From Acidobacteriota bacterium (GTDB taxonomy: Bacteria > Actinomycetota > Acidimicrobiia > Spongiisociales > UBA5794): 64,000 nt of DNA. The DNA is taken from NCBI GenBank assembly GCA_022562055.1, contig JADFQA010000012.1, positions 14,483 through 78,482 of the forward strand, read 5' to 3'. A program made the position numbers and the translations under genes. This document shows, piece after piece, positions 8,584 through 64,000 of the stretch (within the stretch, counting starts at the first letter, position 1; every line of letters starts with the position of its first letter). The notes under the pieces were generated by a model, which was given only the letters and a program-made list of their open reading frames with translations, ran no database searches and was not told the DNA's origin.

Positions 8584-10065
8584 CTACTCGGGTTCTATAT
8601 GGGTGGCACCTGCGAGAACCTCGCCAACGGCGTCGATGAGGTTCGCCGCCGTGACCAGACGGTTCGCTCGTTGGCGAGCACCGGCAACTCCATGCCAGTA
8701 AGCAGCGGACCGCGCTGCAACATCGGGCTCCATCCCGGCTGCAAGGAACGCCCCGATCATGCCGCTGAGCACGTCACCTGTCCCGATCGTTGCTAGCTCT
8801 GGGCCACCGGTGTTCACAACCCAGGTTTGCTGGCCATGGATGAACGTCGGGTTGCCTTTCTCGACAATCACCGCGCCATATCGAAGAGCGGTATCAGCCA
8901 CCGGTTCGGTCTCATGACTGCGCAATGACCGGAGCTCTCCAGCATGCGGAGTGAGAACAGTCGGTGCTGAACGGGCAGCGATCGCATCGGCGTCGGCAAT
9001 CGCACGCAAGGCGTCGGCGTCGATGACGGTGGGGCCGGGCCAGCGGGTCGCGATCTCGGCGAGCACTGCGTCAGACGACCTACCCGCGCCGGGTCCGAGC
9101 ACCAAGACATCGAAGCGGTCGGCGAGCGTTAACACTGGTCCAATGTCTGCTTGAGTAAAGCAGTCGCCGCCCCCGACGCTGTGAGACAGCAGGTGGGCCG
9201 GCAGCGGGCCATCGACACCGCCGGGCCGGACAACCGTGACTGCACCGGCACCGGCCGCAAGTGCTGCTTCGGCAGCCAACACCGGAGCTCCACCCATCCC
9301 TACGGAACCGCCGACCAGCGCAACCGAACCGGCCGACCACTTGTGGCTGTGTCGGGGCCGCTGTGGCAATGGAGCGTCGCGGCTCTCGCACAACAACCAG
9401 ATCGGTATTTCGCCAGAGAGACCGATGTCGACAACGACAACGTCGCCAGCGCGCTCAGCGCCGGCACCGACAAGAAGGCCGGGTTTGAGGGCGTGGAATG
9501 TCACCGTAGTGTCCGCTGTGAAAGCACGCCCACGGACTTCGCCGGTACCGGCGTCGACACCTGAAGGTATGTCAATCGACAACACGCGCGCCGAAGTCCC
9601 CGCCCAGTCGGAGAGAACATCAGGAAGCTCGCCGCTGAATCCAACACCAAAGAGGGCGTCGATCACAAAGTCTGGTGTCCAGAGATCCGTAAGTTCGTGC
9701 AACCGCACGCCCGCCGCAAGCGCCCGCTCTCGAACGTCTGACGCAAGCGAACCTTCGTTCGGGACCGCAAACTCGTGAACCTTCACACGGACGCCGCGCT
9801 TGGCGAGATGGAACGCCGCAACCCAGCCGTCACCACCGTTGTTTCCCTTGCCGGTCAGCACCGCGACCGAATCGCCGTAACCGAGCGCTGTAATACACGA
9901 CACTGCGTAACCGGCACGCTCCATCAGCGTCGCCAAAGGGACAGACGTACTCTCGTCAAGGCGCAAAGACTCTTGTGGGGTGATCACGGGCTGCACCAGA
10001 GCAGTGTACGAAGAAACCCGGCCGATGGGTGAAATCTCAAGTCTCCCGGCCGACACATGTCCCAT
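8584..10065 (-). CDS. nnr: Bifunctional NAD(P)H-hydrate repair enzyme Nnr (YjeF-N epimerase plus YjeF-C dehydratase); true start probably near 9996
   Basis: GKGNNGGDG (YjeF_N) and GTGDVLSG (YjeF_C) motifs. Confidence 0.85.
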   Translation of the reverse strand: MGHVSAGRLEISPIGRVSSYTALVQPVITPQESLRLDESTSVPLATLMERAGYAVSCITALGYGDSVAVLTGKGNNGGDGWVAAFHLAKRGVRVKVHEFAVPNEGSLASDVRERALAAGVRLHELTDLWTPDFVIDALFGVGFSGELPDVLSDWAGTSARVLSIDIPSGVDAGTGEVRGRAFTADTTVTFHALKPGLLVGAGAERAGDVVVVDIGLSGEIPIWLLCESRDAPLPQRPRHSHKWSAGSVALVGGSVGMGGAPVLAAEAALAAGAGAVTVVRPGGVDGPLPAHLLSHSVGGGDCFTQADIGPVLTLADRFDVLVLGPGAGRSSDAVLAEIATRWPGPTVIDADALRAIADADAIAARSAPTVLTPHAGELRSLRSHETEPVADTALRYGAVIVEKGNPTFIHGQQTWVVNTGGPELATIGTGDVLSGMIGAFLAAGMEPDVAARSAAYWHGVAGARQRANRLVTAANLIDAVGEVLAGATHIEPE

Positions 10066-13270: not shown

Positions 13271-14608
13271 CTACCCATGTTCGGCAGCCACGACGGCAGC
13301 TACCGTCTCCGCAATCTCGTTTGCCTTACCGATTTCACCAGCCTCAACCATCACTCGAATGAGCGGTTCAGTGCCAGAGGCGCGGACAAGGATCCGACCG
13401 TCCTGTCCGAGCGCAACCTCCGCCTCGGCTACTGCCTTCGTTATGGCGTCGTTGGTGTCCCAACCGGTCTTCGACGTTACGGTGACGTTGGTGAGCACCT
13501 GAGGGTAGGAACGCATCACCTTGCGCAACTCAGAGAGCCTCAGACCAGTCGCTGCAAGAACCTCTGCAAGTCGCAGCGCGGTGCGAAGGCCATCTCCCGT
13601 CGAGCGGTCCTCCAAAATGACGTGACCTGACTGCTCACCACCCAGGACAGCTCTCGACTTACGCATGGCGTCAAGCACCGCGCGATCCCCGACATCGGTC
13701 TCAATCACTTCGACCCCCAGACCGCCCATGGCGCGCTTAAACCCGAGGTTCGCCATGACAGTGGTCACGACGACGTTCCCCTTCAGCTTCCGCCTGTCGA
13801 TGGCGTGTTTCACCAGAATGGCGAGCACCACATCGCCGTCAACTACTTCGCCGTCCTCATCAACAGCGATCAACCGGTCAGCATCACCATCGAAGCAGAA
13901 CCCGACATGGCCGTTCGCCTGCTCAGCGAGCGCCTCCGGATACATGGCCCCGCAACCGTCGTTGATGTTCATCCCGGTTGGCTCGTCGTTAAATACCTCG
14001 ACGTGGGCGCCGAGGATCTCGAAAAGCATCGGGGCAGCTTGGAAGGCTGCCCCGTGAGCCGTATCCAACGCAAACTCAAGGCCCCGCAGCGAGTACGCGA
14101 CACCGTCCTTGATGTAGTCAACGTAACGTTGCACTGAATTGGCCATCGTTGTTTGGAACCCGACACCGGCACCGGCCACGGTCGCAACGGCAGCTCGGGA
14201 GTGGTAACGCCGCTCAATGGCGCGCTCCTCAGAGTCGCTGAGCTTGGCACCGTCGCGGCCAAAGAACTTGATGCCGTTGTCGGGCGCGGGGTTGTGCGAC
14301 GCGGAAACCATGACGCCGTATCTAGCACCGACGGAGCGGACCAACCGTGACACACCGCCGACGGGGATGATGCCGAGGTCAACCGTGTCAACACCGACGC
14401 TGTTGAACCCGGCATGCAGCGCGGCAGCGATCATCGTGCCCGATCGGCGGGTATCGCGACCGATCAGAACCGGTTCAGTGGCGGTCTTGTCGGTTGCCGC
14501 ACGGGCGAGCTGTATCGCAAGCTCCACGGTGATGTCGGTGTTTGCGCGACCGCGAACTCCATCAGTCCCGAACAACTTCTCGGAGCGATCACCCATGCGT
14601 GCGGGCAC
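13271..14608 (-). CDS. glmM: Phosphoglucosamine mutase
   Basis: LFGTDGVRG and SASHNPAPDNGIK active-site motifs. Confidence 0.95.
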   Translation of the reverse strand: MPARMGDRSEKLFGTDGVRGRANTDITVELAIQLARAATDKTATEPVLIGRDTRRSGTMIAAALHAGFNSVGVDTVDLGIIPVGGVSRLVRSVGARYGVMVSASHNPAPDNGIKFFGRDGAKLSDSEERAIERRYHSRAAVATVAGAGVGFQTTMANSVQRYVDYIKDGVAYSLRGLEFALDTAHGAAFQAAPMLFEILGAHVEVFNDEPTGMNINDGCGAMYPEALAEQANGHVGFCFDGDADRLIAVDEDGEVVDGDVVLAILVKHAIDRRKLKGNVVVTTVMANLGFKRAMGGLGVEVIETDVGDRAVLDAMRKSRAVLGGEQSGHVILEDRSTGDGLRTALRLAEVLAATGLRLSELRKVMRSYPQVLTNVTVTSKTGWDTNDAITKAVAEAEVALGQDGRILVRASGTEPLIRVMVEAGEIGKANEIAETVAAVVAAEHG

Positions 14609-35242: not shown

Positions 35243-36448
35243 CTAGGCACCCTTGCCGTCAGAGTCAGGGGCCCCGCTAGCGTCAGCAGCCTCGTCAGCG
35301 TCAGCGGCCCCGTCGGCAGCGGCATCCTCAGACGTGTCGCCTTCGGCAACTGCCTCTGGAGTAGCGCCGTCGTCGGATGAGGTGTCACTGTCAGACGCGT
35401 CATCGACGTCTACGGCCTCGGTCGTCGAACTCTCTGAAGAGTCTTGGGTGACGTCAATGGCATCTGTCTGAGACTCGGTCTTTGTCTCCACGTCGCTCGT
35501 GGACGTTTGCTCGCTCGAGACATCCGCGGCCACGTCGGTGGCCGTGGTGCCGTCGACAGCGCCGCGTGCATCGTCAAGCTCTTCCTTAACATCGGCGGCC
35601 GACACTGTGGGTGTGTCTTCGTGCTTTGGACGACGTTTACCGCCGCCGGCCTCAACAAGACGTTTGCCGCCGCCGGCCTCGATGATCTTGCGTGGGCCGG
35701 TAGGACCACCGCCTTTTGCGGCTGCCTCGGCACGAGACTTCGCCGGGCGACGGCGATTCGACGGACCACCTGCAGCGAGCCGAGCCTCGGCCGCAATCTT
35801 GTCTGCGCGCCCGAGCAGTGATGGTGAAACATCACCCTTGTACACCCACACCTTGATGCCGATCGTTCCGACGGTGGTGTGCGCGGTGGCGACGCCGTAG
35901 TCAATGTCGGCGCGCAGGGTGTGCAATGGCACACGACCTTCGAGGTACCACTCTCGACGACCCATGTCAGCGCCGCCGAGACGACCAGACGCCTGCACAC
36001 GGACACCCTCAGCACCTGCCTTGAGCGCGGTTGCGACAGTGCGCTTCATAGCTCGCCGGAAAGACACCCGACCCTCAAGCTGGTCAGCGACCGAACGGGC
36101 GAGCAGCGTCGCATCGAGCTCGGCGTTCTGGACCTCTATGACGTTGAACTTCACAATGAGACCGGTGAGTTTCTCAAGCCCGCGGCGCATCCGCTCGGCC
36201 TCAGAACCTGCGCGACCAATCACAACACCAGGTCGCCCCGTGTGGATATCGATCTGGACCTTCTTGTCACCGATTCGTTCGATGTCTATCCGCGAGATTG
36301 CACCGCGCGATAGTTCAGTCGTGAGATACGTGCGGATATCGGCGTCTTGGTTGACCTGGAACGCGTAGTCCTTTTCGGAGTACCAGCGTGACTTCCAGTC
36401 CGTGACGATGCCCAGACGGAGTCCGTACGGATGTATTTTCTGTCCCAC
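35243..36448 (-). CDS. rpsC: 30S ribosomal protein S3 with a roughly 150-170 aa acidic, S/T/A/D/E-rich C-terminal extension (GTG start overlapping the rplV stop)
   Basis: N-terminal [12 protein letters not shown]; KH and S3-C domains, then a low-complexity tail ...[25 protein letters not shown]...[19 protein letters not shown]. Confidence 0.9.
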
Positions 36449-36789
36449 TACGCCTCCTCTCTTTCGGATACAACGATGGTGATGTGACAGGTGCGCTTGC
36501 GAATCTTGGTTGCGCGGCCACGAGCACGTGGGCGCCAACGTTTCAGCGTCGGACCTTCGTCGGCGTATGCCTCAGAAATGAACAACTCATCTGCGTCGAG
36601 AGCATGGTTGTGCTCAGCGTTTGCGACGGCGGAATCGAGGACCTTCAGGATGGTGTCAGCCGCTCTGCGATTGGTAAACCTCAACACATCGCTGGCTTCG
36701 TCGACCGGAAGTTCGCGAACCAAATCGAGAACTCGACGGACCTTATACGGTGACTGACGGATGTACTTCGCCTGCGCTTTGACGTTCAT
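36448..36789 (-). CDS. rplV: 50S ribosomal protein L22
   Basis: Homology. Confidence 0.95.
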
Positions 36790-38910: not shown

Positions 38911-39541
38911 GTGCCTTCACCGCCTCGCGAATGATGACAAGGCCGCGTTTGTTGCCGGGCACTGCGCCTCTGACCATCAATAGGCCCCGATCAGCATCGA
39001 TCTTTGCAATCGTGAGGTTCATAGCTGTGCGTGTGTTACCACCCATGCGACCAGGCATACGCTTCCCCTTGTGGACACGGGCAGGTGTTGCACAGGCGCC
39101 GATCGACCCTGGTGCTCGGTGAACCCGATGTGCCCCATGGGAGGCGGGCATGCCCTTGAAGTTGTGGCGTTTCATCACCCCGGCAAATCCCTTGCCCTTG
39201 GTGACACCCGCAACGTCGATCTTCTGACCGACCTCGAACAGATCGGTGATCGATATCTCCTGACCGAGTGAGTACTGCGAAACGTCGTCGACACGAATTT
39301 CGACAATGTGCTTCGCCGGCGCAACACCCGACTTTGCGAAGTGGCCTGCTGTTGGGCGATTGACGTGACGCTCTGGCAACTCTTTGTATGCGATCTGGAT
39401 CGCCTCATACCCGTCGTTGTCCTGCGTTTTGATTTGTGTGACGTGAACGGGACCAGCCTTGATGATGGTCACCGGAATTACCCGGTTCTCATCATCGAAG
39501 ATCTGAGTCATGCCCAGCTTTTCGCCAAGAATCGCTTTCAC
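38903..39541 (-). CDS. rplC: 50S ribosomal protein L3
   Basis: Homology. Confidence 0.95.
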
Positions 39542-39849
39542 GTCTTGATCTCCACTTCAACCCCGGCGGGCAGATCGAGACGCATGAGAGCGTCCACTGT
39601 CTTTGGCGTCGGATCAAGAATGTCAATCAAACGCTTGTGGATACGTATCTCGAAGTGCTCGCGGCTCGTCTTATCGACATGCGGGCCACGGATGACGCAG
39701 TACCGGTGGATACGGGTCGGCAACGGAATCGGGCCCTTGATCTTCGCTTGGGTACGAATCACCGTTTCTGCAATTTTGCGCGCCGACTCATCAACCACTG
39801 AGTGGTCGTAGGCCTTGAGTCTGATCCGGATCCTGTGTTCGTTAGCCAT
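39538..39849 (-). CDS. rpsJ: 30S ribosomal protein S10
   Basis: Homology; 20 nt downstream of tuf. Confidence 0.96.
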
Positions 39850-39869
39850 GGTTCAGTAACTCCCAGTCC

Positions 39870-41060
39870 CTACTTGATGATTTTGGTGACTCGGCCGGCA
39901 CCAACAGTCCGCCCACCCTCACGAATAGCGAACCGCAACCCCTCATCCATAGCAATCGGATTAATCAACTCAACCGTCATCTCAGTGTTATCACCAGGCA
40001 TCACCATCTCCGTACCCTCAGGCAACGACACCGAACCAGTCACATCCGTCGTCCGAAAATAAAACTGCGGACGATACCCATCAAAAAACGGGTTCTGACG
40101 CCCACCCTCATTACGCGTCAACACATACACCTGAGCCTCAAACAACGTATGAGGAGTAATCGAACCCGGCGCCGCAATCACCTGACCACGCTCCACATCC
40201 TCCTTACCCGTCCCCCGCAACAACAACCCAACATTGTCACCAGCATGAGCCTCATCCAACAACTTACGAAACATCTCCACCCCAGTAACCGTCGTCTTCT
40301 GCAACGCCCGAATACCAACAATGTCAACCTCAGACGCAATCTTCAACCATCACTGCTCAACCCGCCCAGTCACCACAGTCCCCCGCCCAGTAATCGAAAA
40401 CACATCCTCAATCGGCATCAAAAACGGCTTATCCATATCCCGCTCAGGCAACAAAATGTACTCATCAACAGCCGCCATCAACTCCAAAACCTGAGCCGAA
40501 GCACCCTCATCACCCTCCAACGCCAACAACGCCGAACCACGAATCACCGGAACCTCATCACCCGGGAACTCATACTCCGACAACAACTCCCGAACCTCCA
40601 ACTCAACAAGATCCAACAACTCCTCATCATCCACCATGTCAACCTTATTCAAAAAGACAACAATCCGAGGAACCCCAACCTGCAACGCCAACAACACATG
40701 CTCACGCGTCTGCGGCATCGGACCATCAGCAGCCGACACCACCAAAATCGCACCATCAATCTGCGCAGCACCCGTAATCATATTCTTCACATAATCAGCA
40801 TGACCCGGCATATCAACATGCGCATAATGACGATTCACCGTCTCATACTCCACATGAGAAATCGCAATCGTAATACCACGCTCACGCTCCTCAGGAGCAT
40901 TATCAATCTCATCAAAAGCAGTGAACTGCGTCACCCCACCAACAGTCTCAGCCAACACCCGCGTAATCGCAGCAGTCAACGTCGTCTTCCCATGATCAAT
41001 ATGACCCATCGTCCCAACATTCACATGCGGCTTCACCCGCTCAAACTTCTCCTTAGCCAT
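39870..41060 (-). pseudogene. tuf: Elongation factor Tu, copy 1 (str operon position), interrupted by an in-frame TGA at 40350-40352; highly atypical codon usage
   Basis: The ORF track splits EF-Tu into 40350..41060 and 39870..40346. Copy 2 reads ...[15 protein letters not shown] where copy 1 reads ...[14 protein letters not shown]. Third codon positions are almost exclusively G or T. Confidence 0.85.
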
Positions 41061-41074
41061 AACGGCGACTCCTT

Positions 41075-43177
41075 CTATTCGCCACGAACCTTGGCAACAA
41101 TTTCTTGCGCCACGGTGCTCGGGACTTCTTGGTACGAATGAAACTGCATGCTGTAGCTGGCGCGACCTTTGGTTCGAGAACGAAGATCGCTCACGTAGCC
41201 AAACATCTCTGCCAGCGGCGTCAATGCATTGATGATTTTGATGGGTCCACGGGAATCCATGGACTCAACCTTTCCACGACGAGCGGAGATATCACCGATG
41301 ACATCTCCCAAGTGCTCTTCTGGTGTGACTACCTCGACCTCCATTATGGGTTCGAGAAGTTTTATGCCCGCCCGCTCGGCAGCCGCTTTGAGGGCCATTG
41401 AACCGGCGATTCGGAACGCCATCTCGTTCGAGTCCACGTTATGGCTCGAGCCGTCGATCAGCGTTGCCTTTAGGTCGACAAGCGGGAATCCCGCGAGAAC
41501 ACCGGCTTCGAGAACGTCGCGCATTCCTTTTTCTGCAGCGGGGATAAACTCGCGTGGAACGGACCCACCCTTGATTTTGTCGATGAATTCGAATCCTGAC
41601 CCCGGCGCACCTGGTTCAAGGTTGATAACGACGTGGCCGTACATACCGGAGCCACCGGTCTGCTTCTTCAGCTTGCCGTCAATCTTGGTAACTGCCCTTT
41701 TGATCGTCTCGCGATACGCGACCTGAGGCCGACCGACATCAGCCTCGACCTTGAACTCGCGTCGCAAACGGTCGACAAGGATATCGAGGTGCAGTTCGCC
41801 CATGCCTGCAATGATCGTCTGACCTGTCTCCTCGTCGGTGTGGACCACAAACGTCGGGTCTTCTTCGGCAAGACGCATGAGGCCTTCGCCGAGTTTGTCC
41901 TGAGCGGCCTTGTTCTTCGGCTCAATCGCCACCGAAATCACAGGATCGGGGAAGGTCATCGACTCGAGTTGGATCGGTGCGTCCTGAGCGGACAGGGTGT
42001 GCCCGGTCTTCGTTGCTTTCAACCCAACCGCCGCCACAATGTCACCGGTGCGAACCTCGTCAATATCCTCTTGCGTGTTTGCATGCATGCGCAGCAAACG
42101 TCCGAACCGCTCGCGCTTTCCGGTGGTCGCGTTCACGACGGTGTCGCCCCTCTTGGCCCACCCCGAGTACACGCGGAAGTAGGTGAGTTTCCCAACATAG
42201 GGATCGGACATGATCTTGAATGCCAACGCCGAGAATGGCTCGTCATCGCTCGGCTTGCGCTCGAGTATCTCGTCCTCTTTTCCTGGTCTGAAACCGGTCA
42301 TCGGGGGAACATCGAGCGGGCTTGGAAGATACATCACCACGCCGTCGAGGAGACCCTGGACGCCCTTGTTTTTGAGGGCAGATCCGAGAAGTACCGGTAC
42401 GAAATCGTGGTTGATGGTGCCTTTACGAATGGCCGCACGCAGCTCATCGGGGGTGATTTCCTCGTCAGAGAGATATTTCTCAAGGAGGTCGGCGTCCTCT
42501 GCCGCAACAATGTCGAGCAGCTTTGCGCGATACTCATCGGCCTGCTCCTGGAGCTCGGCCGGGATGTCTACAACGTCCCACTCTTTGCCGTCGTCGGTTT
42601 TGCCGTCGTCGGTGTCCCGATACACGATTGCTTTCATATCGACGAGGTCGATGGCGCCGGAAAAGTCACCCTCAACTCCCACCGGAATCTGAACGGCGAC
42701 TGGGTTACCACCGAGGCGATCGACAATCGAATCGATAGCGGCAAAGTAGTCTGCGCCGATCCGATCCATCTTGTTGATGAAGCAGATGCGGGGGACCCCG
42801 TACTTGTCGGCTTGACGCCATACAGTCTCTGACTGCGGCTCAACACCTGAGACCGCATCGAAAACCGCAACCGCGCCATCGAGAACACGAAGCGACCGCT
42901 CGACCTCGACCGTGAAATCGACGTGCCCAGGCGTATCAATAATGTTGATGGTGTGATCATCCCAAAGGCACGTGGTGGCGGCAGACGTAATAGTGATGCC
43001 GCGTTCCTGCTCCTGCTCCATCCAGTCCATGACAGCAGACCCCTCGTGGACCTCACCGATCTTGTACGTGCGACCGGTGTAGTAGAGGATCCGCTCTGTC
43101 ACTGTCGTCTTACCGGCATCGATGTGAGCCATGATGCCGATATTGCGAACCGTTTCGAGTTTCATACTGCGTGCCAT
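41075..43177 (-). CDS. fusA: Elongation factor G
   Basis: [10 protein letters not shown]-domain; 700 aa. Confidence 0.97.
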
Positions 43178-44311: not shown

Positions 44312-45085
44312 TCACGGTTCGGGCCACCCGGACGATGTTTCGTCAGAGGTGTCTGATGACTCGCTGCGACCGTCCGGTGGCGCCTCGATCAGGGGCTGCG
44401 GGGACCGCATGCGTCGATAAGGGTTGGGCGCAAGAATCCCCTGTATCGCGATGATCATGATGAATATCTGAATGGTCTGAGCGCCCGGGAGCAGAACCCG
44501 GGCTGCATATACGGTCGCGACAACCGCAACCACGGAGATACCACGCGCTACGGCGTACGCTTTGGCGGGATCCACCCTGAGCGCGAGGGCGTGGAAAGTC
44601 ATGTAGCCGCCGTCGAGCGGGAGCATCGGCACCCAGTTGAACAGGCCCCAAAAGAACGCTGAGAGCACGAATCCACTGATGAGGAACCGCAGATCACCAC
44701 TCGGGATCGAGATCGCGCCGGTCACCATCGCCCAATGCAGTGGACCCGCAACGACGATTCCAACGGCCGACCCCGCGCCCGAAATGAGAAACCGGCGTCC
44801 GTGACTCATCTCACCTGGGAGAAACGTCGTAGCTCCACCAAACACCATCATCGAAATCCGCACGTCGCGAGCACCAAAACGAGTTGCCAAAACAGCATGT
44901 CCGAGTTCGTGAAGCAGGATCGCAACCAGGAAGCCGGTGGCCCACCAGATGGCGCCGGTCATTCCGATTTGACCGGCAAGGAACGCAACAATCACCAACA
45001 CGGACCAGTGGATGGTGACCGGTATTGCCCCCACAGTGAAGGACAGTCTCCCCTTGCTGGTTTGGCCGACGGGTGTCGGTATCAC
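44312..45085 (-). CDS. Site-2 protease family (M50) membrane metalloprotease
   Basis: HELGHA zinc motif within TM helices. Confidence 0.75.
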   Translation of the reverse strand: MIPTPVGQTSKGRLSFTVGAIPVTIHWSVLVIVAFLAGQIGMTGAIWWATGFLVAILLHELGHAVLATRFGARDVRISMMVFGGATTFLPGEMSHGRRFLISGAGSAVGIVVAGPLHWAMVTGAISIPSGDLRFLISGFVLSAFFWGLFNWVPMLPLDGGYMTFHALALRVDPAKAYAVARGISVVAVVATVYAARVLLPGAQTIQIFIMIIAIQGILAPNPYRRMRSPQPLIEAPPDGRSESSDTSDETSSGWPEP

Positions 45086-45140
45086 ATGCGCCCCTGCAAG
45101 AATTGACTGCTAAAGCTGAATCAACAGTAGCGTCTGTGCA

Positions 45141-46487
45141 ATGCAAGGCGGGATCCGAAACATCTTGCGGCTCGGTACCACTGCGATCGTCGTATCGATT
45201 GGGTTGGCTAGCGCTGTCGTTGCGCAGCCACCGACCGTGCTCCAGGAACGCTTCGATACCCAAGGTTGGCACGACTCGTGGATCGACTGGCGTCCGGGAG
45301 ACGATCTCACCACCTACGCCAACAAAGGATATCGCACCACAGGACTCGGCGTTACCATTTCACCAGGCCAACGACGCGGGACCGGGGCGCACTACCGAAT
45401 CGATGGTATCGTCGACGAAGCCTGGTTTCGCTACTACTTACGGCTCGATAACTTCGTACCTATCTCCTCAGGGAAGTTTCCAGGGTTCGCGGGCATGCCG
45501 TCGTACACGGCAAGGGGCTGCCTCCCATCGACCCCGTCCGCGCCTGGCTGGTCCGCTCGAACAATGTTCACCGAGGCGGGCACCGGAGGGGCAGCGGCGG
45601 ACCAGATCAGACTCGGAACGTACCTATACCATCTCGGCCAAGCCGGAACCTGCGGCGACAAACTGCTGTGGGACGCCGAAGTGGCGACGCTCGATCAGAA
45701 CCGCTGGTACTGCATTGAAGGCCACATATCGCTCAACACACCGGGATTCGGCAATGGCGTGGTCGAAGGTTGGGTCGACGGTACGCGGGCGTACTTTCGT
45801 GACGACGTTGAGTTCCGCCGCGCCGATGAAACCGACCTCGATATCCGCACGCTGTGGCTCAACGTCTATTTCGGCGGCGCCACTGTCGTGAACGACCGCG
45901 ACCTTTCGCTTACCCTGGACGAGCTTGTCATTTCGACTGTGGATCAGGTTGGTTGTGTGGCCCCGTTCTGGGACTCCCTTGCGAGTCAACACCGATCGGC
46001 GATCGAGTCGTTGGCCTACGCAGGGGTCATCCAGGGATGCGCCTACGGGAAGTTCTGTCCCGATGACTTACTGACACGCGCAGAAACGCTGACTCTTATC
46101 GACAGAATGATTCAAGCCCCCGCACAGCCTGACGATGCGTTCGACGACGACGAAGGTCACTGGGCAGAGGCGGTGTTGAATCGGCTTGCGCCCCTCGGAA
46201 TTGTCACGGGGTGCGGCCCCCGCCTTATCTGCCCTGATGCCGCGGTCACGCGTGGTCAGTTCGCCGCTTTTATCACGAGGGCATTTGATCTTCCGGCGCC
46301 GACGAACGACTTCTTCCACGACGACAATCAATCGCTGTTCGAGTACTCGATCAACCAGATCGCATCGATCGGCCTCACGCGCGGCTGCGGAGCCGGTGCA
46401 GAAGACTATTGCCCCAACGATCCTCTGACCAGAGCGCAGGCGGCGACGCTTCTATACCGACTGCTCACCTGGCTGGAAGACCGGTGA
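45141..46487 (+). CDS. Secreted protein with an N-terminal beta-jelly-roll-like domain (possible polysaccharide lyase/hydrolase-like) and three C-terminal SLH (S-layer homology) repeats
   Basis: Signal peptide, then three repeats of the type LAYAGVIQGCAYGKFCPDDLLTRAETLTLI / ...GIVTGCG...VTRGQFAAFI / ...GLTRGCG...LTRAQAATLL. Confidence 0.6.
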   Translation: MQGGIRNILRLGTTAIVVSIGLASAVVAQPPTVLQERFDTQGWHDSWIDWRPGDDLTTYANKGYRTTGLGVTISPGQRRGTGAHYRIDGIVDEAWFRYYLRLDNFVPISSGKFPGFAGMPSYTARGCLPSTPSAPGWSARTMFTEAGTGGAAADQIRLGTYLYHLGQAGTCGDKLLWDAEVATLDQNRWYCIEGHISLNTPGFGNGVVEGWVDGTRAYFRDDVEFRRADETDLDIRTLWLNVYFGGATVVNDRDLSLTLDELVISTVDQVGCVAPFWDSLASQHRSAIESLAYAGVIQGCAYGKFCPDDLLTRAETLTLIDRMIQAPAQPDDAFDDDEGHWAEAVLNRLAPLGIVTGCGPRLICPDAAVTRGQFAAFITRAFDLPAPTNDFFHDDNQSLFEYSINQIASIGLTRGCGAGAEDYCPNDPLTRAQAATLLYRLLTWLEDR

Positions 46488-57222: not shown

Positions 57223-57867
57223 TTAGAACTTAACAATCTGGTCGAAGCTGAGTTCGACAGGCGTTTCACGGCCGAAGATATCGACAAGGACTCGCACCTT
57301 CGACTGGTCGACGTTGATGTCTTCGACGATGCCGTTGAAATCGGCGAAAGGCCCTTCGACAACACGCACTGTCTCGCCAACCTCCCAGGCCGGCTTGAAC
57401 CGCGGCTTCTCTTTTTCGATCTCGTCCTTTCGGACGCCGAGGATTCGCTCAACTTCGCGCCTTGACAGTGGTGTTGGCTTGGTGCCAGAGCCCACGAAGC
57501 CGGTAACACCCGGGGTGTTGCGAACCGCATACCAGGCGTCATCATCGAGGTACAACCTGCACAAGATGTATCCAGGAAACTTCTTGCGCTGAACGGTGAC
57601 CTTCTTACCACCCTTGAACTCGATGACGTCCTCCATCGGAATCACGACATCGAAAATCTTGTCCTCAAGATGCATTGACTTCACACGAGTTTTAAGGTTC
57701 GCCTTTACTTTGTTCTCGTACCCGGAGTACGAATGGATGACATACCACGAACCGGAGAGGTCGTACGGACTCTCTGGTTCAGGCTCGACGTATGGCGCGG
57801 AGGCGGCGTCCTCTTCGTCGACGACTTCGTCGGTCTCCGTTTCGAGAGCTTGTGTCACGTCATTCAT
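57223..57867 (-). CDS. nusG: Transcription termination/antitermination factor NusG (acidic N-terminal extension)
   Basis: NGN and KOW domains; N-terminus DEVVDEEDAASAPYVEPEPE. Confidence 0.95.
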   Translation of the reverse strand: MNDVTQALETETDEVVDEEDAASAPYVEPEPESPYDLSGSWYVIHSYSGYENKVKANLKTRVKSMHLEDKIFDVVIPMEDVIEFKGGKKVTVQRKKFPGYILCRLYLDDDAWYAVRNTPGVTGFVGSGTKPTPLSRREVERILGVRKDEIEKEKPRFKPAWEVGETVRVVEGPFADFNGIVEDINVDQSKVRVLVDIFGRETPVELSFDQIVKF

Positions 57868-57871
57868 TTCG

Positions 57872-58135
57872 TTACACCCCCAACAACTTCAGGAACACCT
57901 TCTGCAGGCCCCAGTCGAGGCCAAAGGTCATCCCGGTCAATGCAGTTGCGGTGATGAACACGACGAGAGTGAACGTCGTGAGTTCTTTTCTTCCTGGCCA
58001 CGCGACCTTCTTGAGTTCTTGACGGACCTCGCGAAAGAACTGCTGGAAGCTGGCACGATCGCGTTTGCGCGGGGCTGGACCCTGCTTGCGTCGTTGCTTG
58101 GCGCGCTCTTCCTCCTTGGCCTGGAGGCGTCGCAT
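57872..58135 (-). CDS. secE: Preprotein translocase subunit SecE (start MRRLQAKEE; ORF track 58195 would overlap the tRNA)
   Basis: Single C-terminal TM, motif FFREVRQELKKVAWP. Confidence 0.9.
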   Translation of the reverse strand: MRRLQAKEEERAKQRRKQGPAPRKRDRASFQQFFREVRQELKKVAWPGRKELTTFTLVVFITATALTGMTFGLDWGLQKVFLKLLGV

Positions 58136-58167
58136 CTCTCGATTCACATGCAATCCTTCCTCGATGG

Positions 58168-58241
58168 GCAGGGGCGGTGGGATTCGAACCCACAACCTCT
58201 GGTTTTGGAGACCAGCGCTCTAGCCGTTAGAGCTACACCCC
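58168..58241 (-). tRNA. trnW: tRNA-Trp (anticodon CCA); 3' CCA not encoded
   Basis: AGGGGUGUAGCUCUAACGGCUAGAGCGCUGGUCUCCAAAACCAGAGGUUGUGGGUUCGAAUCCCACCGCCCCUG; cloverleaf with anticodon loop CUCCAAA. Confidence 0.9.
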
Positions 58242-58324
58242 TCTACGACTCGGAGCCGACGGGAGAGTATATGTTGCTTTGCCCGAAAGTGTAAAACCCT
58301 GGTTTGGCGTGCGGGAAACCTCTG

Positions 58325-61487: not shown

Positions 61488-62750
61488 CGTTCTTGCGTCC
61501 AATAGTGCAGGATCCTGCGGTGGTCTCAAGTGGTGTGCGCGACGGGGTGACCTTTTTGAGGTGATTTTATGTCTCGTCCAAAGACCCCTTGGCGGGTAGC
61601 GCGGGTAGCGCTGTTTGAGTTGGCGAGGGGGGCGTCCATTGATGATGCTGCAACGGTGGCGGGGGTGTCTGCGCGTATGGTTGACCGGTTTGTCAACGAG
61701 TATGGGCGGATGACTATACGTGAAACAAAACCACGAGCTAACGCACTCACTTTCGGGGAACGCGAAGAGATATGGATGGGTATCCAACGTGGGGAGTCAA
61801 ACACTGTGCTGGCGCAACGGTTGGGAAGGTCCCGTTCAACAATCTGGCGGGAGATCACTAACAATGGTGGCCGTGAAGGCTATCGCATGTCCCGCGCCCA
61901 GGATCGTGCCCATCGACAGGGACGGCGCCAGCGTCCAACGTGGGTTGAGACTAGGCCGTGGCTGTGGGATGTCGTGGTTGGGTTGTTGCTTTACGAGAAG
62001 TGGTCACCCGAGCAGATCGCTCACCGGCTTCGCATAGAGCACCCCAATGATTCATCATGGTGGGTGTCACACGAAACGATTTATCAAGCTATCTACGTCC
62101 AAGCCAGAGGCGGGTTACGTGAAGAACTCATGGCCTGTCTGCGTAGCGGGCGCACGGCACGTAAACCGCAGCGTCGTGGAGTGACCACTGGGGGCAGGAT
62201 TACTTCAAAGGTGATGATCTCTCAACGACCTAGCGAGGTTGCTGATCGGGCTGTGCCCGGGCACTGGGAAGGAGACCTCATAGTTGGCAAAGGAAACAAA
62301 AGTTACGTTGCGACACTGGTGGAACGCACCACCCGGTTAGGGATACTCATCAAAATTGACTCCAAGGACGCCGGGCATGTTGCTCAACGCCTGAGTGAAC
62401 ATGTTCAGACACTCCCTACCCAGCTCTTCAAGACCCTCACCTGGGACCAGGGAACCGAACTTGCTGACCATGCCGTGTTCACTATCCGGACCGGGGTCCC
62501 TGTGTTCTTTTGTGACCCTCGTTCGCCGTGGCAACGCGGCTCTAACGAGAATTTCAACGGCCTCGTGAGGCAATTCCTCCCCAAAGGAACCGACCTCTCC
62601 CAACACTCCCAAGCCGACCTTGATGAATACGCCCGACTACTCAACAACCGACCACGTAAAACGCTTAACTGGGACAAACCAGCAGAGCAATACAACCAAC
62701 TCGTCGCGGCCACAGCTTGAAACCACCTGCACTATTGGACGCAAGAACGG
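61488..62750 (+). mobile_element. IS30-family insertion sequence with perfect 25-bp terminal inverted repeats
   Basis: IRL ccgttcttgcgtccaatagtgcagg (61488-61512) = revcomp of IRR (62726-62750); single transposase ORF inside. Confidence 0.9.
61569..62720 (+). CDS. IS30-family transposase (DDE)
   Basis: HTH N-terminus; HWEGD...integrase core; typical IS30 length (383 aa). Confidence 0.9.
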   Translation: MSRPKTPWRVARVALFELARGASIDDAATVAGVSARMVDRFVNEYGRMTIRETKPRANALTFGEREEIWMGIQRGESNTVLAQRLGRSRSTIWREITNNGGREGYRMSRAQDRAHRQGRRQRPTWVETRPWLWDVVVGLLLYEKWSPEQIAHRLRIEHPNDSSWWVSHETIYQAIYVQARGGLREELMACLRSGRTARKPQRRGVTTGGRITSKVMISQRPSEVADRAVPGHWEGDLIVGKGNKSYVATLVERTTRLGILIKIDSKDAGHVAQRLSEHVQTLPTQLFKTLTWDQGTELADHAVFTIRTGVPVFFCDPRSPWQRGSNENFNGLVRQFLPKGTDLSQHSQADLDEYARLLNNRPRKTLNWDKPAEQYNQLVAATA

Positions 62751-62758
62751 GGGCTTTG

Positions 62759-62920
62759 CTAGCGGGTCTCCTTGTGCATCACATGTTCGCGACACCACTT
62801 GCAGAACTTCTTGAGCTCAATACGCTCACGCGTGTTGGTCTTGTTCTTCGTTGTCACGTAGTTACGACGCTTGCATTTCTCGCAAGCCAAAGTAATCGGC
62901 GGTCTCTTGGCGGAGGCCAT
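62759..62920 (-). CDS. rpmG: 50S ribosomal protein L33 (53 aa; absent from the ORF track because under 60 aa)
   Basis: Manual translation: [53 protein letters not shown]; GAGAGGAA RBS. Confidence 0.85.
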
Positions 62921-63013
62921 TGTCATTTCCTCTCAGTGGTAGCGCGAGCCCGGAGATTCCGGGACAGCGTCACCCTCAGTCTTCTTCCAGAACGTGTCTG
63001 AAGGTTGTCGTCC

Positions 63014-64000
63014 CTACTTGATGATTTTGGTGACTCGGCCGGCACCAACAGTCCGCCCACCCTCACGAATAGCGAACCGCAACCCCTCATCCATAGCAAT
63101 CGGATTAATCAACTCAACCGTCATCTCAGTGTTATCACCAGGCATCACCATCTCCGTACCCTCAGGCAACGACACCGAACCAGTCACATCCGTCGTCCGA
63201 AAATAAAACTGCGGACGATACCCATCAAAAAACGGGTTCTGACGCCCACCCTCATTACGCGTCAACACATACACCTGAGCCTCAAACAACGTATGAGGAG
63301 TAATCGAACCCGGCGCCGCAATCACCTGACCACGCTCCACATCCTCCTTACCCGTCCCCCGCAACAACAACCCAACATTGTCACCAGCATGAGCCTCATC
63401 CAACAACTTACGAAACATCTCCACCCCAGTAACCGTCGTCTTCTGCAACGCCCGAATACCAACAATGTCAACCTCAGACCCAATCTTCAACAACCCCTGC
63501 TCAACCCGCCCAGTCACCACAGTCCCCCGCCCAGTAATCGAAAACACATCCTCAATCGGCATCAAAAACGGCTTATCCATATCCCGCTCAGGCAACAAAA
63601 TATATTCATCAACAGCCGCCATCAACTCCAAAACCTGAGCCGAAGCACCCTCATCACCCTCCAACGCCAACAACGCCGAACCACGAATCACCGGAACCTC
63701 ATCACCCGGGAACTCATACTCCGACAACAACTCCCGAACCTCCAACTCAACAAGATCCAACAACTCCTCATCATCCACCATGTCAACCTTATTCAAAAAG
63801 ACAACAATCCGAGGAACCCCAACCTGCAACGCCAACAACACATGCTCACGCGTCTGCGGCATCGGACCATCAGCAGCCGACACCACCAAAATCGCACCAT
63901 CAATCTGCGCAGCACCCGTAATCATATTCTTCACATAATCAGCATGACCCGGCATATCAACATGCGCATAATGACGATTCACCGTCTCATACTCCACATG
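63014..64000 (-). CDS. tuf: Elongation factor Tu, copy 2 (intact over the visible part; 5' end beyond the window); nearly identical at DNA level to copy 1 and with the same atypical codon usage
   Basis: 63014..63997 ORF; DNA identical to 39870..40333 and onward apart from the 4-nt cluster and 2 synonymous sites. Confidence 0.9.

Follow-up and report, generated by a model that had tools for sequence, protein, structure and literature searches.

The stretch of DNA analyzed here, 64,000 nucleotides of contig JADFQA010000012.1 (GenBank assembly GCA_022562055.1, forward-strand positions 14,483 to 78,482; hereafter the window), carries two copies of tuf, the gene that encodes EF-Tu. Its host is an uncultured actinobacterium of the Acidimicrobiia type, and the nearest EF-Tu proteins bear names such as Acidimicrobiia bacterium. 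Both copies lie on the minus strand as direct repeats with a spacing of 23,144 nucleotides (nt). Copy 1 (39870..41060) ends the str operon, rpsL-rpsG-fusA-tuf, after a fusA-tuf gap of 14 nt and immediately before rpsJ; in this assembly it contains an in-frame TGA at 40350-40352. Copy 2 (63014..64000) is cut by the end of the window, within which its last 328 codons and its stop codon (63014-63016) are visible and translate into an intact C-terminal part of EF-Tu. The first 68 codons of copy 2, and the genes for tRNA-Tyr, tRNA-Thr and tRNA-Met upstream of it, lie beyond base 64000. The original prediction had placed this second copy in a tufB-like position upstream of rpmG-(tRNA-Trp)-secE-nusG, and that order is what we see, both here and in other species, distant relatives included, with the upstream tRNA genes as an additional point of resemblance. 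The accompanying premise that Actinobacteria carry one tuf, in the str operon, fails for this class, in which the locus upstream of rpmG is the widely shared one.

An ungapped comparison of window positions 39866-40856 with 63010-64000 yields 985 equal bases of 991, and a repeat search returns the same pair. The mismatches number six and are those listed previously, namely a four-base cluster that creates the stop codon in copy 1 and two synonymous sites. Within the cluster the bases of copy 1 and copy 2 are G/C at 40336/63480, C/A at 40348/63492, T/C at 40350/63494 and A/C at 40352/63496. At the synonymous sites (40458/63602 and 40461/63605) copy 1 reads GAG TAC and copy 2 reads GAA TAT (63602..63605, minus strand). 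Both of these copy 2 variants recur in a contig from another sample (L005), so that the pair represents a real, standing polymorphism. Identity was also expected to continue for 6 nt past the stop codon; it does continue, though for 4 nt by direct comparison. The 3′ flank common to both copies is GGAC on the sense strand (63010..63013, minus strand), and the next six bases are unlike (CTCCCA vs GTTGTC).

The remainder of copy 2 was read from a near-identical scaffold in ENA, ZHOU22-1_SAMN16252661 scaffold_13 (79,675 nt), found by a look-up with the L33 protein. This scaffold shows 5 differences from the window in 11,242 bases and holds both loci (L009 for the str operon and L010 for the second locus), and its two tuf genes are intact and 100% identical. 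The full tuf2, of 396 amino acids (aa), occupies L010:1922-3112 (Pfam GTP_EFTU/D2/D3), and the str-operon gene, equal to it, occupies L009:10001-11191. With this extension beyond base 64000, one of the checks proposed alongside the original prediction, the 5′ border of identity falls 16 nt ahead of the ATG (AGAAGGAGTCGCCGTT, with the Shine-Dalgarno sequence inside it), and the 3′ border 4 nt after the stop codon. The repeat therefore measures 1211 nt, and at locus 1 of the window the full unit of homology, made up of the 16 upstream nt, the reading frame and the 4 downstream nt, spans 39866..41076 on the minus strand. Comparison of the upstream regions, a second proposed check, shows that only those 16 nt are shared, mostly the Shine-Dalgarno region. 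Judged by these alignments, the non-coding identity is tiny and marks where homology ends, not how old the duplication is.

Both loci recur in three further species. In a sister species (ERZ1742238 NODE_64, 106 kb; its EF-Tu is deposited as ‘bacterium BMS3Bbin02’), they lie on one contig and the copies match at 100% over the 1191-nt gene and a further 17 nt upstream, with 0 nt shared downstream. A third species (ERZ28763718 ctg124777, 1.9 Mb) and a fourth (ERZ25071379 contig_2, 3.69 Mb) likewise carry both loci with identical copies, which lie 73.6 kb apart in the fourth. Within each of the four genomes, the window species being represented by its ENA scaffold, the tuf copies are thus 100% identical, whereas tuf of the window species and tuf of its sister agree at 91.7%; fusA, rpsJ, rplC, rpsG, nusG and rplK stand at 79-83% in the same comparison. 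Copies that are identical within genomes and diverged between genomes point to concerted evolution by gene conversion. The order tRNA-Tyr/Thr/Met-tuf-rpmG is kept in relatives at 75-88% EF-Tu identity, and in some Acidimicrobiia only one locus is seen. These contexts, as well as the codon statistics given below, derive in part from a haphazard sample of GTDB genomes matching EF-Tu, the window species not being among the matches listed. Look-ups of the str operon in relatives with ordinary codon usage were negative, in that their EF-G was not among the best 120 matches and S12 returned the window species only.

These comparisons make it highly probable that the two tuf copies are homogenized by recurrent intrachromosomal gene conversion over a tract running from -16 to +4, and that the two-locus state is old. 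The homogenizing process would be recombinational conversion. The two-locus state would go back to before at least one sister species branched off, and the tRNA-tuf-rpmG locus would be of still greater age.

The original prediction had offered a recent duplication or active gene conversion as alternative readings of the identity, and only the second is upheld. Under a recent segmental duplication, tuf and its ribosome-binding site would have been copied into the spacer between tRNA-Met and rpmG shortly before sampling, which fits the 99.4-100% identity of the copies and a 1211-nt unit that neatly matches a gene in size. Nevertheless, relatives at 75-88% EF-Tu identity with ordinary codon usage have tuf at the same insertion point, and the three other species possess both loci amid flanking genes that are ~20% diverged from those of the window species. 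Independent insertions into one and the same spacer in every lineage would be far less parsimonious, and we consider a recent duplication very unlikely.

The repeat leaves clear traces in public assemblies. The 1211-nt unit occurs as stand-alone contigs (L011 and L012), contigs from the fusA side end 123 nt into tuf (k141 assemblies), and contigs from the rpmG side end ~150 nt upstream of rpmG, which is the manner in which an exact two-copy repeat breaks a de Bruijn graph. Three contigs, L218 (NCBI BDTL01000275.1), L005 and L007, join fusA-tuf-rpmG directly; checked against the resolved assemblies, these joins silently omit ~23 kb that hold rplKAJL, rpoB, rpoC, rpsL and rpsG. Since such an order would delete both rpoB and rpoC, it corresponds to no real genome. 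L099 and L152 are probably mis-joins of the same kind, on the strength of the same fusA-tuf-rpmG order only.

This mishandling of the repeat, seen in the stand-alone units and the chimeric contigs, is what lends some credit to the notion that the duplication is itself an assembly artefact, in which the metagenome assembler entered a single tuf locus twice, or collapsed or expanded a repeat. In the window, both copies have unique and biologically sensible flanks on both sides, and the same pairs of junctions appear in independent samples and in four species, including on megabase-scale contigs. Stand-alone units and broken flank contigs are, moreover, the expected product of a true two-copy repeat. 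An artefact is accordingly the most improbable of the explanations weighed here, with hardly any chance of being correct.

Several points weigh against conversion between two long-established loci. All of the evidence is comparative and comes from metagenome assemblies, and conversion has been inferred rather than directly observed. Assemblies can mis-join through the tuf repeat, as the chimeric contigs L005, L007, L218, L099 and L152 illustrate, and short-read assemblers could copy one consensus into both loci and so overstate their identity; to set against this last concern, two of the four genomes are on contigs of 1.9-3.7 Mb. A crude consensus scan passed no promoter in the spacer between tRNA-Met and copy 2 and no terminator in the spacer between copy 2 and rpmG, so that the structure of the transcription unit is deduced. 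Finally, the six differing sites in the window's own assembly indicate that homogenization is not perfect at every moment.

Four of those six sites form the stop-creating cluster in copy 1 (40336..40352, minus strand), which alters codons 237, 238 and 242 to TGA TGG ... GCG from GGG TTG ... GGG. The cluster is private to copy 1 of the window. None of the fetched loci carries its 27-nt variant segment, and the same-species scaffold that differs from the window at 5 of 11,242 bases has two intact tuf copies. A look-up in the protein collection found no record of the 236-aa product expected of a truncated copy 1. A templated origin was considered and rejected, the 27-nt segment having no second copy in the window at ≤3 mismatches. 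The TGA is either a very young lesion, tolerable thanks to the intact copy 2, or a consensus error, the repeat being one that cannot be phased with short reads.

The arrangement closely parallels a well-studied one. Duplication of tuf is held to be ancient and to have been followed by differential loss and gene conversion (PMC8046335 and PMC6735719, citing Lathe and Bork 2001); according to the same two papers, the ancestors of Proteobacteria and Firmicutes had tufB ahead of (rpmG-)secE, and conversion between tufA and tufB has been shown in Salmonella (citing Abdulkarim and Hughes 1996, Hughes 2000 and Paulsson 2017). They cover Proteobacteria, Acidobacteria and Firmicutes, and do not mention Actinobacteria. 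The gene order of the window is that of the reconstructed ancestral cluster, tufB-(rpmG)-secE-rpoBC-str-S10, with rpmG and tRNA-Trp assigned to the secE unit, and the Acidimicrobiia in which one locus is seen are as expected under differential loss in the model of ancient duplication (Lathe and Bork 2001, via PMC8046335). As with tufA and tufB of Salmonella enterica and Escherichia coli, one copy ends the str operon after fusA and the other stands behind tRNA genes and upstream of secE-nusG; the copies are near-identical within a genome, closer to each other than are orthologs of different species, and their homology ends at the borders of the gene.

Homogenization in Salmonella and E. coli proceeds by RecA-dependent gene conversion (Abdulkarim and Hughes 1996, Hughes 2000 and Paulsson 2017, via PMC6735719 and PMC8046335). 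There are also differences from that system. The copies described here are direct repeats 23 kb apart in one uninterrupted ribosomal supercluster; in Salmonella, an inversion made between the pair of tuf genes is tolerated (PMC6735719). Between tuf and secE lie rpmG and tRNA-Trp, and the upstream tRNA genes are Tyr-Thr-Met instead of the Thr-Tyr-Gly-Thr of Salmonella and E. coli. The host, in turn, is an actinobacterium, from a phylum generally without MutS/MutL, and its converted tract has an extreme bias toward codons ending in G or T. Multiple EF-Tu genes also exist in the actinobacterium Streptomyces, whose tuf1, tuf2 and tuf3 are strongly diverged in sequence and role and are not known to be homogenized; unlike these paralogs, the window copies encode the same protein.

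The codon bias is an anomaly that both copies share, as had been proposed from the sequence alone: in each, almost only G- or T-ending codons are used. The frequencies of the four bases at third codon positions (A3, C3, G3 and T3) are 0.01, 0.04, 0.53 and 0.43, respectively, in both copies; codons ending in A or C make up ~5%, leucine is encoded by TTG in 32 of 33 cases, and on the sense strand C is scarce (14%) and G abundant (38%). In the same window C3 is 0.32-0.39 in fusA, rpoB, rpoC, the rps and rpl genes, nusG and groEL, and a scan of the window for keto skew leaves the two tuf copies alone standing out. Even within tuf, the last nine codons are ordinary. Expression level alone is an unlikely cause, with groEL and the ribosomal protein genes unaffected.

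The bias extends beyond the window species. Biased tuf genes are present in the sister species and in more distant Acidimicrobiia, the biased loci including L013, L016, L085, L216/217, L225/226 and L232/233, and a motif scan recovered them from at least 120 environmental metagenome contigs. In 34 full-length biased genes from metagenomes the bias runs evenly from the first codons to ~10 codons short of the stop, with no skew in the flanks. Codon usage is ordinary in relatives whose protein is closer (88%), and the bias is therefore evolutionarily labile. Third-position differences between species are mostly exchanges of G and T (49 of 67), as are many within-species variants, which argues that the restriction to G and T is actively maintained. 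Outside the Actinobacteria, the tuf genes of a Gemmatimonadota metagenome-assembled genome (MAG; L094) and of L041, L034 and L078 have G3 of 0.60-0.70 and C3 of 0.23-0.34, a milder excess of G over C. The two-copy tuf genes of Burkholderia have ordinary third positions.

Five explanations of the bias were considered and found insufficient as causes. The first, horizontal spread of one biased allele, is contradicted by four-fold degenerate sites compared between biased lineages, at which the fraction of matches is 0.44-0.66 against 0.38-0.47 expected from composition, like that of normally coded pairs; matches barely above expectation argue that the bias is maintained or convergent and not recently shared sequence. 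Second, a one-off C-to-T hypermutation would not account for the fact that, where relatives have C, T is found here in only about half of the cases and G in the others, or for leucine codons that go from CTC to TTG. Third, selection for hidden, or ‘ambush’, stops would agree with a rise in off-frame stops from 1-9 to 26-51, yet T is avoided before A, and the rise is a by-product. Fourth, a minimally structured mRNA is not what the bias produces: the predicted folding energy is -33.2 kcal/mol per 120 nt, compared with -36.7 for genome-typical codons, and the message is not less structured than its own synonymous shuffles. Finally, pressure on amino-acid composition is not indicated, as the switch of leucine from CTN to TTG would by itself lower C at codon positions 1 and 2 by about as much as is seen.

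The distribution of the bias appears to follow the duplicated state. It is present in all four genomes in which two identical copies are seen. In two lineages with normal codons, on contigs of 0.3-3.7 Mb, there is one place for the exact protein, a look-up that diverged second copies would escape. The borders agree as well. Where homology ends 0-4 nt past the stop codon, the last 9-25 codons are exempt from the bias; in one genome with homology reaching 38 nt past the stop, the bias extends through the final codon, and G+T make up 76% of the 38 shared non-coding nt (binomial p = 0.0008). The lineages that carry this link between bias and duplication are few and related. The G/T bias may, then, be a by-product of copying between the tuf genes.

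A route by which copying could impose such a bias is suggested by mismatch repair. Actinobacteria are generally without MutS/MutL and use NucS/EndoMS, which acts on G-T, G-G and T-T mismatches and hardly on others, notably not on A-C, and which suppresses homeologous recombination (PMC8228993). NucS occurs in Ilumatobacter coccineus, a member of the same class (PMC5290159). In Mycolicibacterium smegmatis, single-stranded DNA annealed to the lagging-strand template loses exactly those sites that form G-G, G-T or T-T, within a patch of ~6 nt, and neighboring mismatches of other kinds are retained (PMC11551744). We tentatively propose that the G- and T-ending codons could be the footprint of a strand-asymmetric biased gene conversion that arises from the narrow mismatch specificity of NucS/EndoMS, an idea that we hold to be possible and no more probable than that.

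In the proposed sequence of events, the antisense strand of the donor would anneal mainly to the exposed sense strand of the recipient; in a gene that runs in the direction of replication, the sense strand is the lagging-strand template. Where the recipient has G or T and the donor A or C (as read on the sense strand), a G/T, G/G or T/T mismatch would arise, at which NucS would restore the template over a short patch. Where the recipient instead has A or C and the donor G or T, the mismatch would be A/C, C/C or A/A, which NucS would ignore, so that the conversion would stand. Differences between G and T would produce G/A or T/C mismatches, likewise ignored, and would hence be neutral. The net effect would be a drive toward G and T on the sense strand at sites free of selection, only inside the homology tract and weaker near its 3′ edge, with G-T transversions becoming the dominant neutral polymorphism. 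Outside tuf the minus strand is slightly G-rich.

Such a drive would have a known counterpart. GC-biased gene conversion is a drive on base composition that results from repair bias in recombining tracts. Like it, the anomaly described here is confined to the converting tract, is unconnected with codon optimality and weakens toward the edge of the tract. Unlike it, the bias sets keto bases (G+T) against amino bases (A+C) on one strand, is strand-asymmetric, and would be caused by NucS/EndoMS instead of MutS/MutL. The basis of the NucS proposal is a correlation over a handful of genomes, an assumed strand polarity and the presumed presence of nucS in the host. No NucS was found among the open reading frames (ORFs) scanned, which covered 1-30 kb of the 64-kb window.

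A bias unrelated to the duplication is an alternative that we likewise regard as possible but doubtful, either through selection on the EF-Tu mRNA or through transcription-associated deamination of the non-template strand. In one possible variant of selection, a C-poor message would escape the actinobacterial RNase E, whose cuts fall 5′ of cytidines, or Rho, which is loaded onto RNA rich in C and poor in G. The C-poor, G-rich sense strand has the required composition, and the preferred cutting site of the mycobacterial RNase E is directly before a C (PMC10641625). The exempt last ~10 codons would suit the Rho model, in which late rut sites are harmless, and the predominance of G-T exchanges among species and strains bespeaks a constraint that is actively maintained. 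Several observations nonetheless run counter to this alternative. The highly expressed groEL, rplL, rpsJ, rplK and fusA are unbiased, with C3 of 0.32-0.38 compared with 0.04 in tuf, and relatives with one detected tuf copy are ordinary (C3 0.55-0.57) though equally in need of EF-Tu. T is preferred before C, which creates the YC dinucleotides that Rho binds; predicted mRNA structure shifts by only ~10%; and the co-transcribed flanks are without skew. Deamination meets a separate difficulty, as about half of the C sites of relatives are G here, for which a simple change of C to T is insufficient.

The genes between and around the two copies place them in a single ribosomal supercluster. Read along the minus strand, tuf copy 2 is followed by rpmG, an IS30-type transposase gene on the other strand, a DUF4015 gene, a MaoC-type dehydratase gene and a sigma factor gene; then come tRNA-Trp, secE, nusG, rplK, rplA, rplJ, rplL, rpoB and rpoC; and these are followed by two inserted genes, rpsL, rpsG, fusA, tuf copy 1, rpsJ and the genes of the S10, spc and alpha operons. 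The tRNA-Tyr, tRNA-Thr and tRNA-Met genes upstream of copy 2 lie at L010 1557-1879, and tRNA-Met ends 42 nt before the ATG. Co-transcription of copy 2 with these tRNA genes, by analogy with the tufB operon of E. coli, is plausible, and we infer that both tuf copies are expressed. The gene for L33, rpmG (62759..62920, minus strand; 53 aa, Pfam Ribosomal_L33), starts 93 nt past the stop codon of copy 2. In the intervening spacer, a small G+C hairpin (CCCGGA...TCCGGG; 62948..62965, minus strand) can be read directly from the sequence. The sister species has a hairpin at the same site of this spacer (L216, about 9240-9260), with a different loop and stem sequence. No Rfam family matched the hairpin, the Rfam matches around copy 2 being tRNAs only; from its position it could be a processing site or a leader of L33.

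Beyond rpmG, the gene for the IS30-family transposase (61569..62720, plus strand; Pfam HTH_38 and rve) separates rpmG from the DUF4015 gene. This insertion is polymorphic in the species, being present in L001, L004 and L008 and not in L002, L003 and L006, in which the DUF4015 gene follows rpmG directly. The gene for tRNA-Trp(CCA) lies at 58167..58242, secE at 57872-58147 and nusG at 57223-57867, all on the minus strand. At the other end of the cluster, fusA, encoding EF-G (41075..43177, minus strand), sits directly upstream of copy 1 and has ordinary codon usage (C3 0.38), and rpsJ, encoding S10 (39538..39849, minus strand), begins 20 nt downstream of copy 1 and is ordinary as well. The two inserted genes between rpoC and rpsL (44312-46487) encode a polysaccharide lyase 14/SLH protein, on the opposite strand, and an M50-like membrane protein, and they occupy the same place in the sister species (L217). 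The gene for ribosomal protein S3 (35243-36538, minus strand) is unusually long, with a product of 401 aa by the gene call in L009 and, in the sister species, of 382 aa. Opposite copy 1, an ORF of 330 aa runs antisense in the codon-aligned frame (40149-41141, plus strand). An antisense gene was rejected here, as such an ORF arises automatically when a gene has no TTA, CTA or TCA codons. The sole database entry identical to this EF-Tu, MCH7668744.1, is labeled ‘Acidobacteria bacterium’. That label is probably wrong, given that the named relatives are mostly Acidimicrobiia/Actinomycetota and that the gene order agrees.

Two EF-Tu genes kept identical by copying are an old and known arrangement, and the duplication taken by itself belongs to a well-known kind. 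The present analysis extends the concerted evolution of tufA and tufB, and the ancestral tufB-rpmG-secE order, to the Acidimicrobiia. It also identifies an exact 1.2-kb repeat that breaks or mis-joins metagenome assemblies and is thus a trap for analyses of MAG completeness and synteny. The part that merits the attention of specialists is the G- and T-ending codon usage, limited to the tract and apparently tied to the duplicated state. If the link between conversion and NucS is true, a compositional drive would for the first time be traceable to the non-canonical mismatch repair of Actinobacteria; it would be a keto-biased analog of GC-biased gene conversion, and sequence alone would suffice to read the strand polarity of gene conversion in bacteria. 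If the bias instead reflects selection on mRNA, it would represent an unusually strong, gene-specific constraint on synonymous sites.

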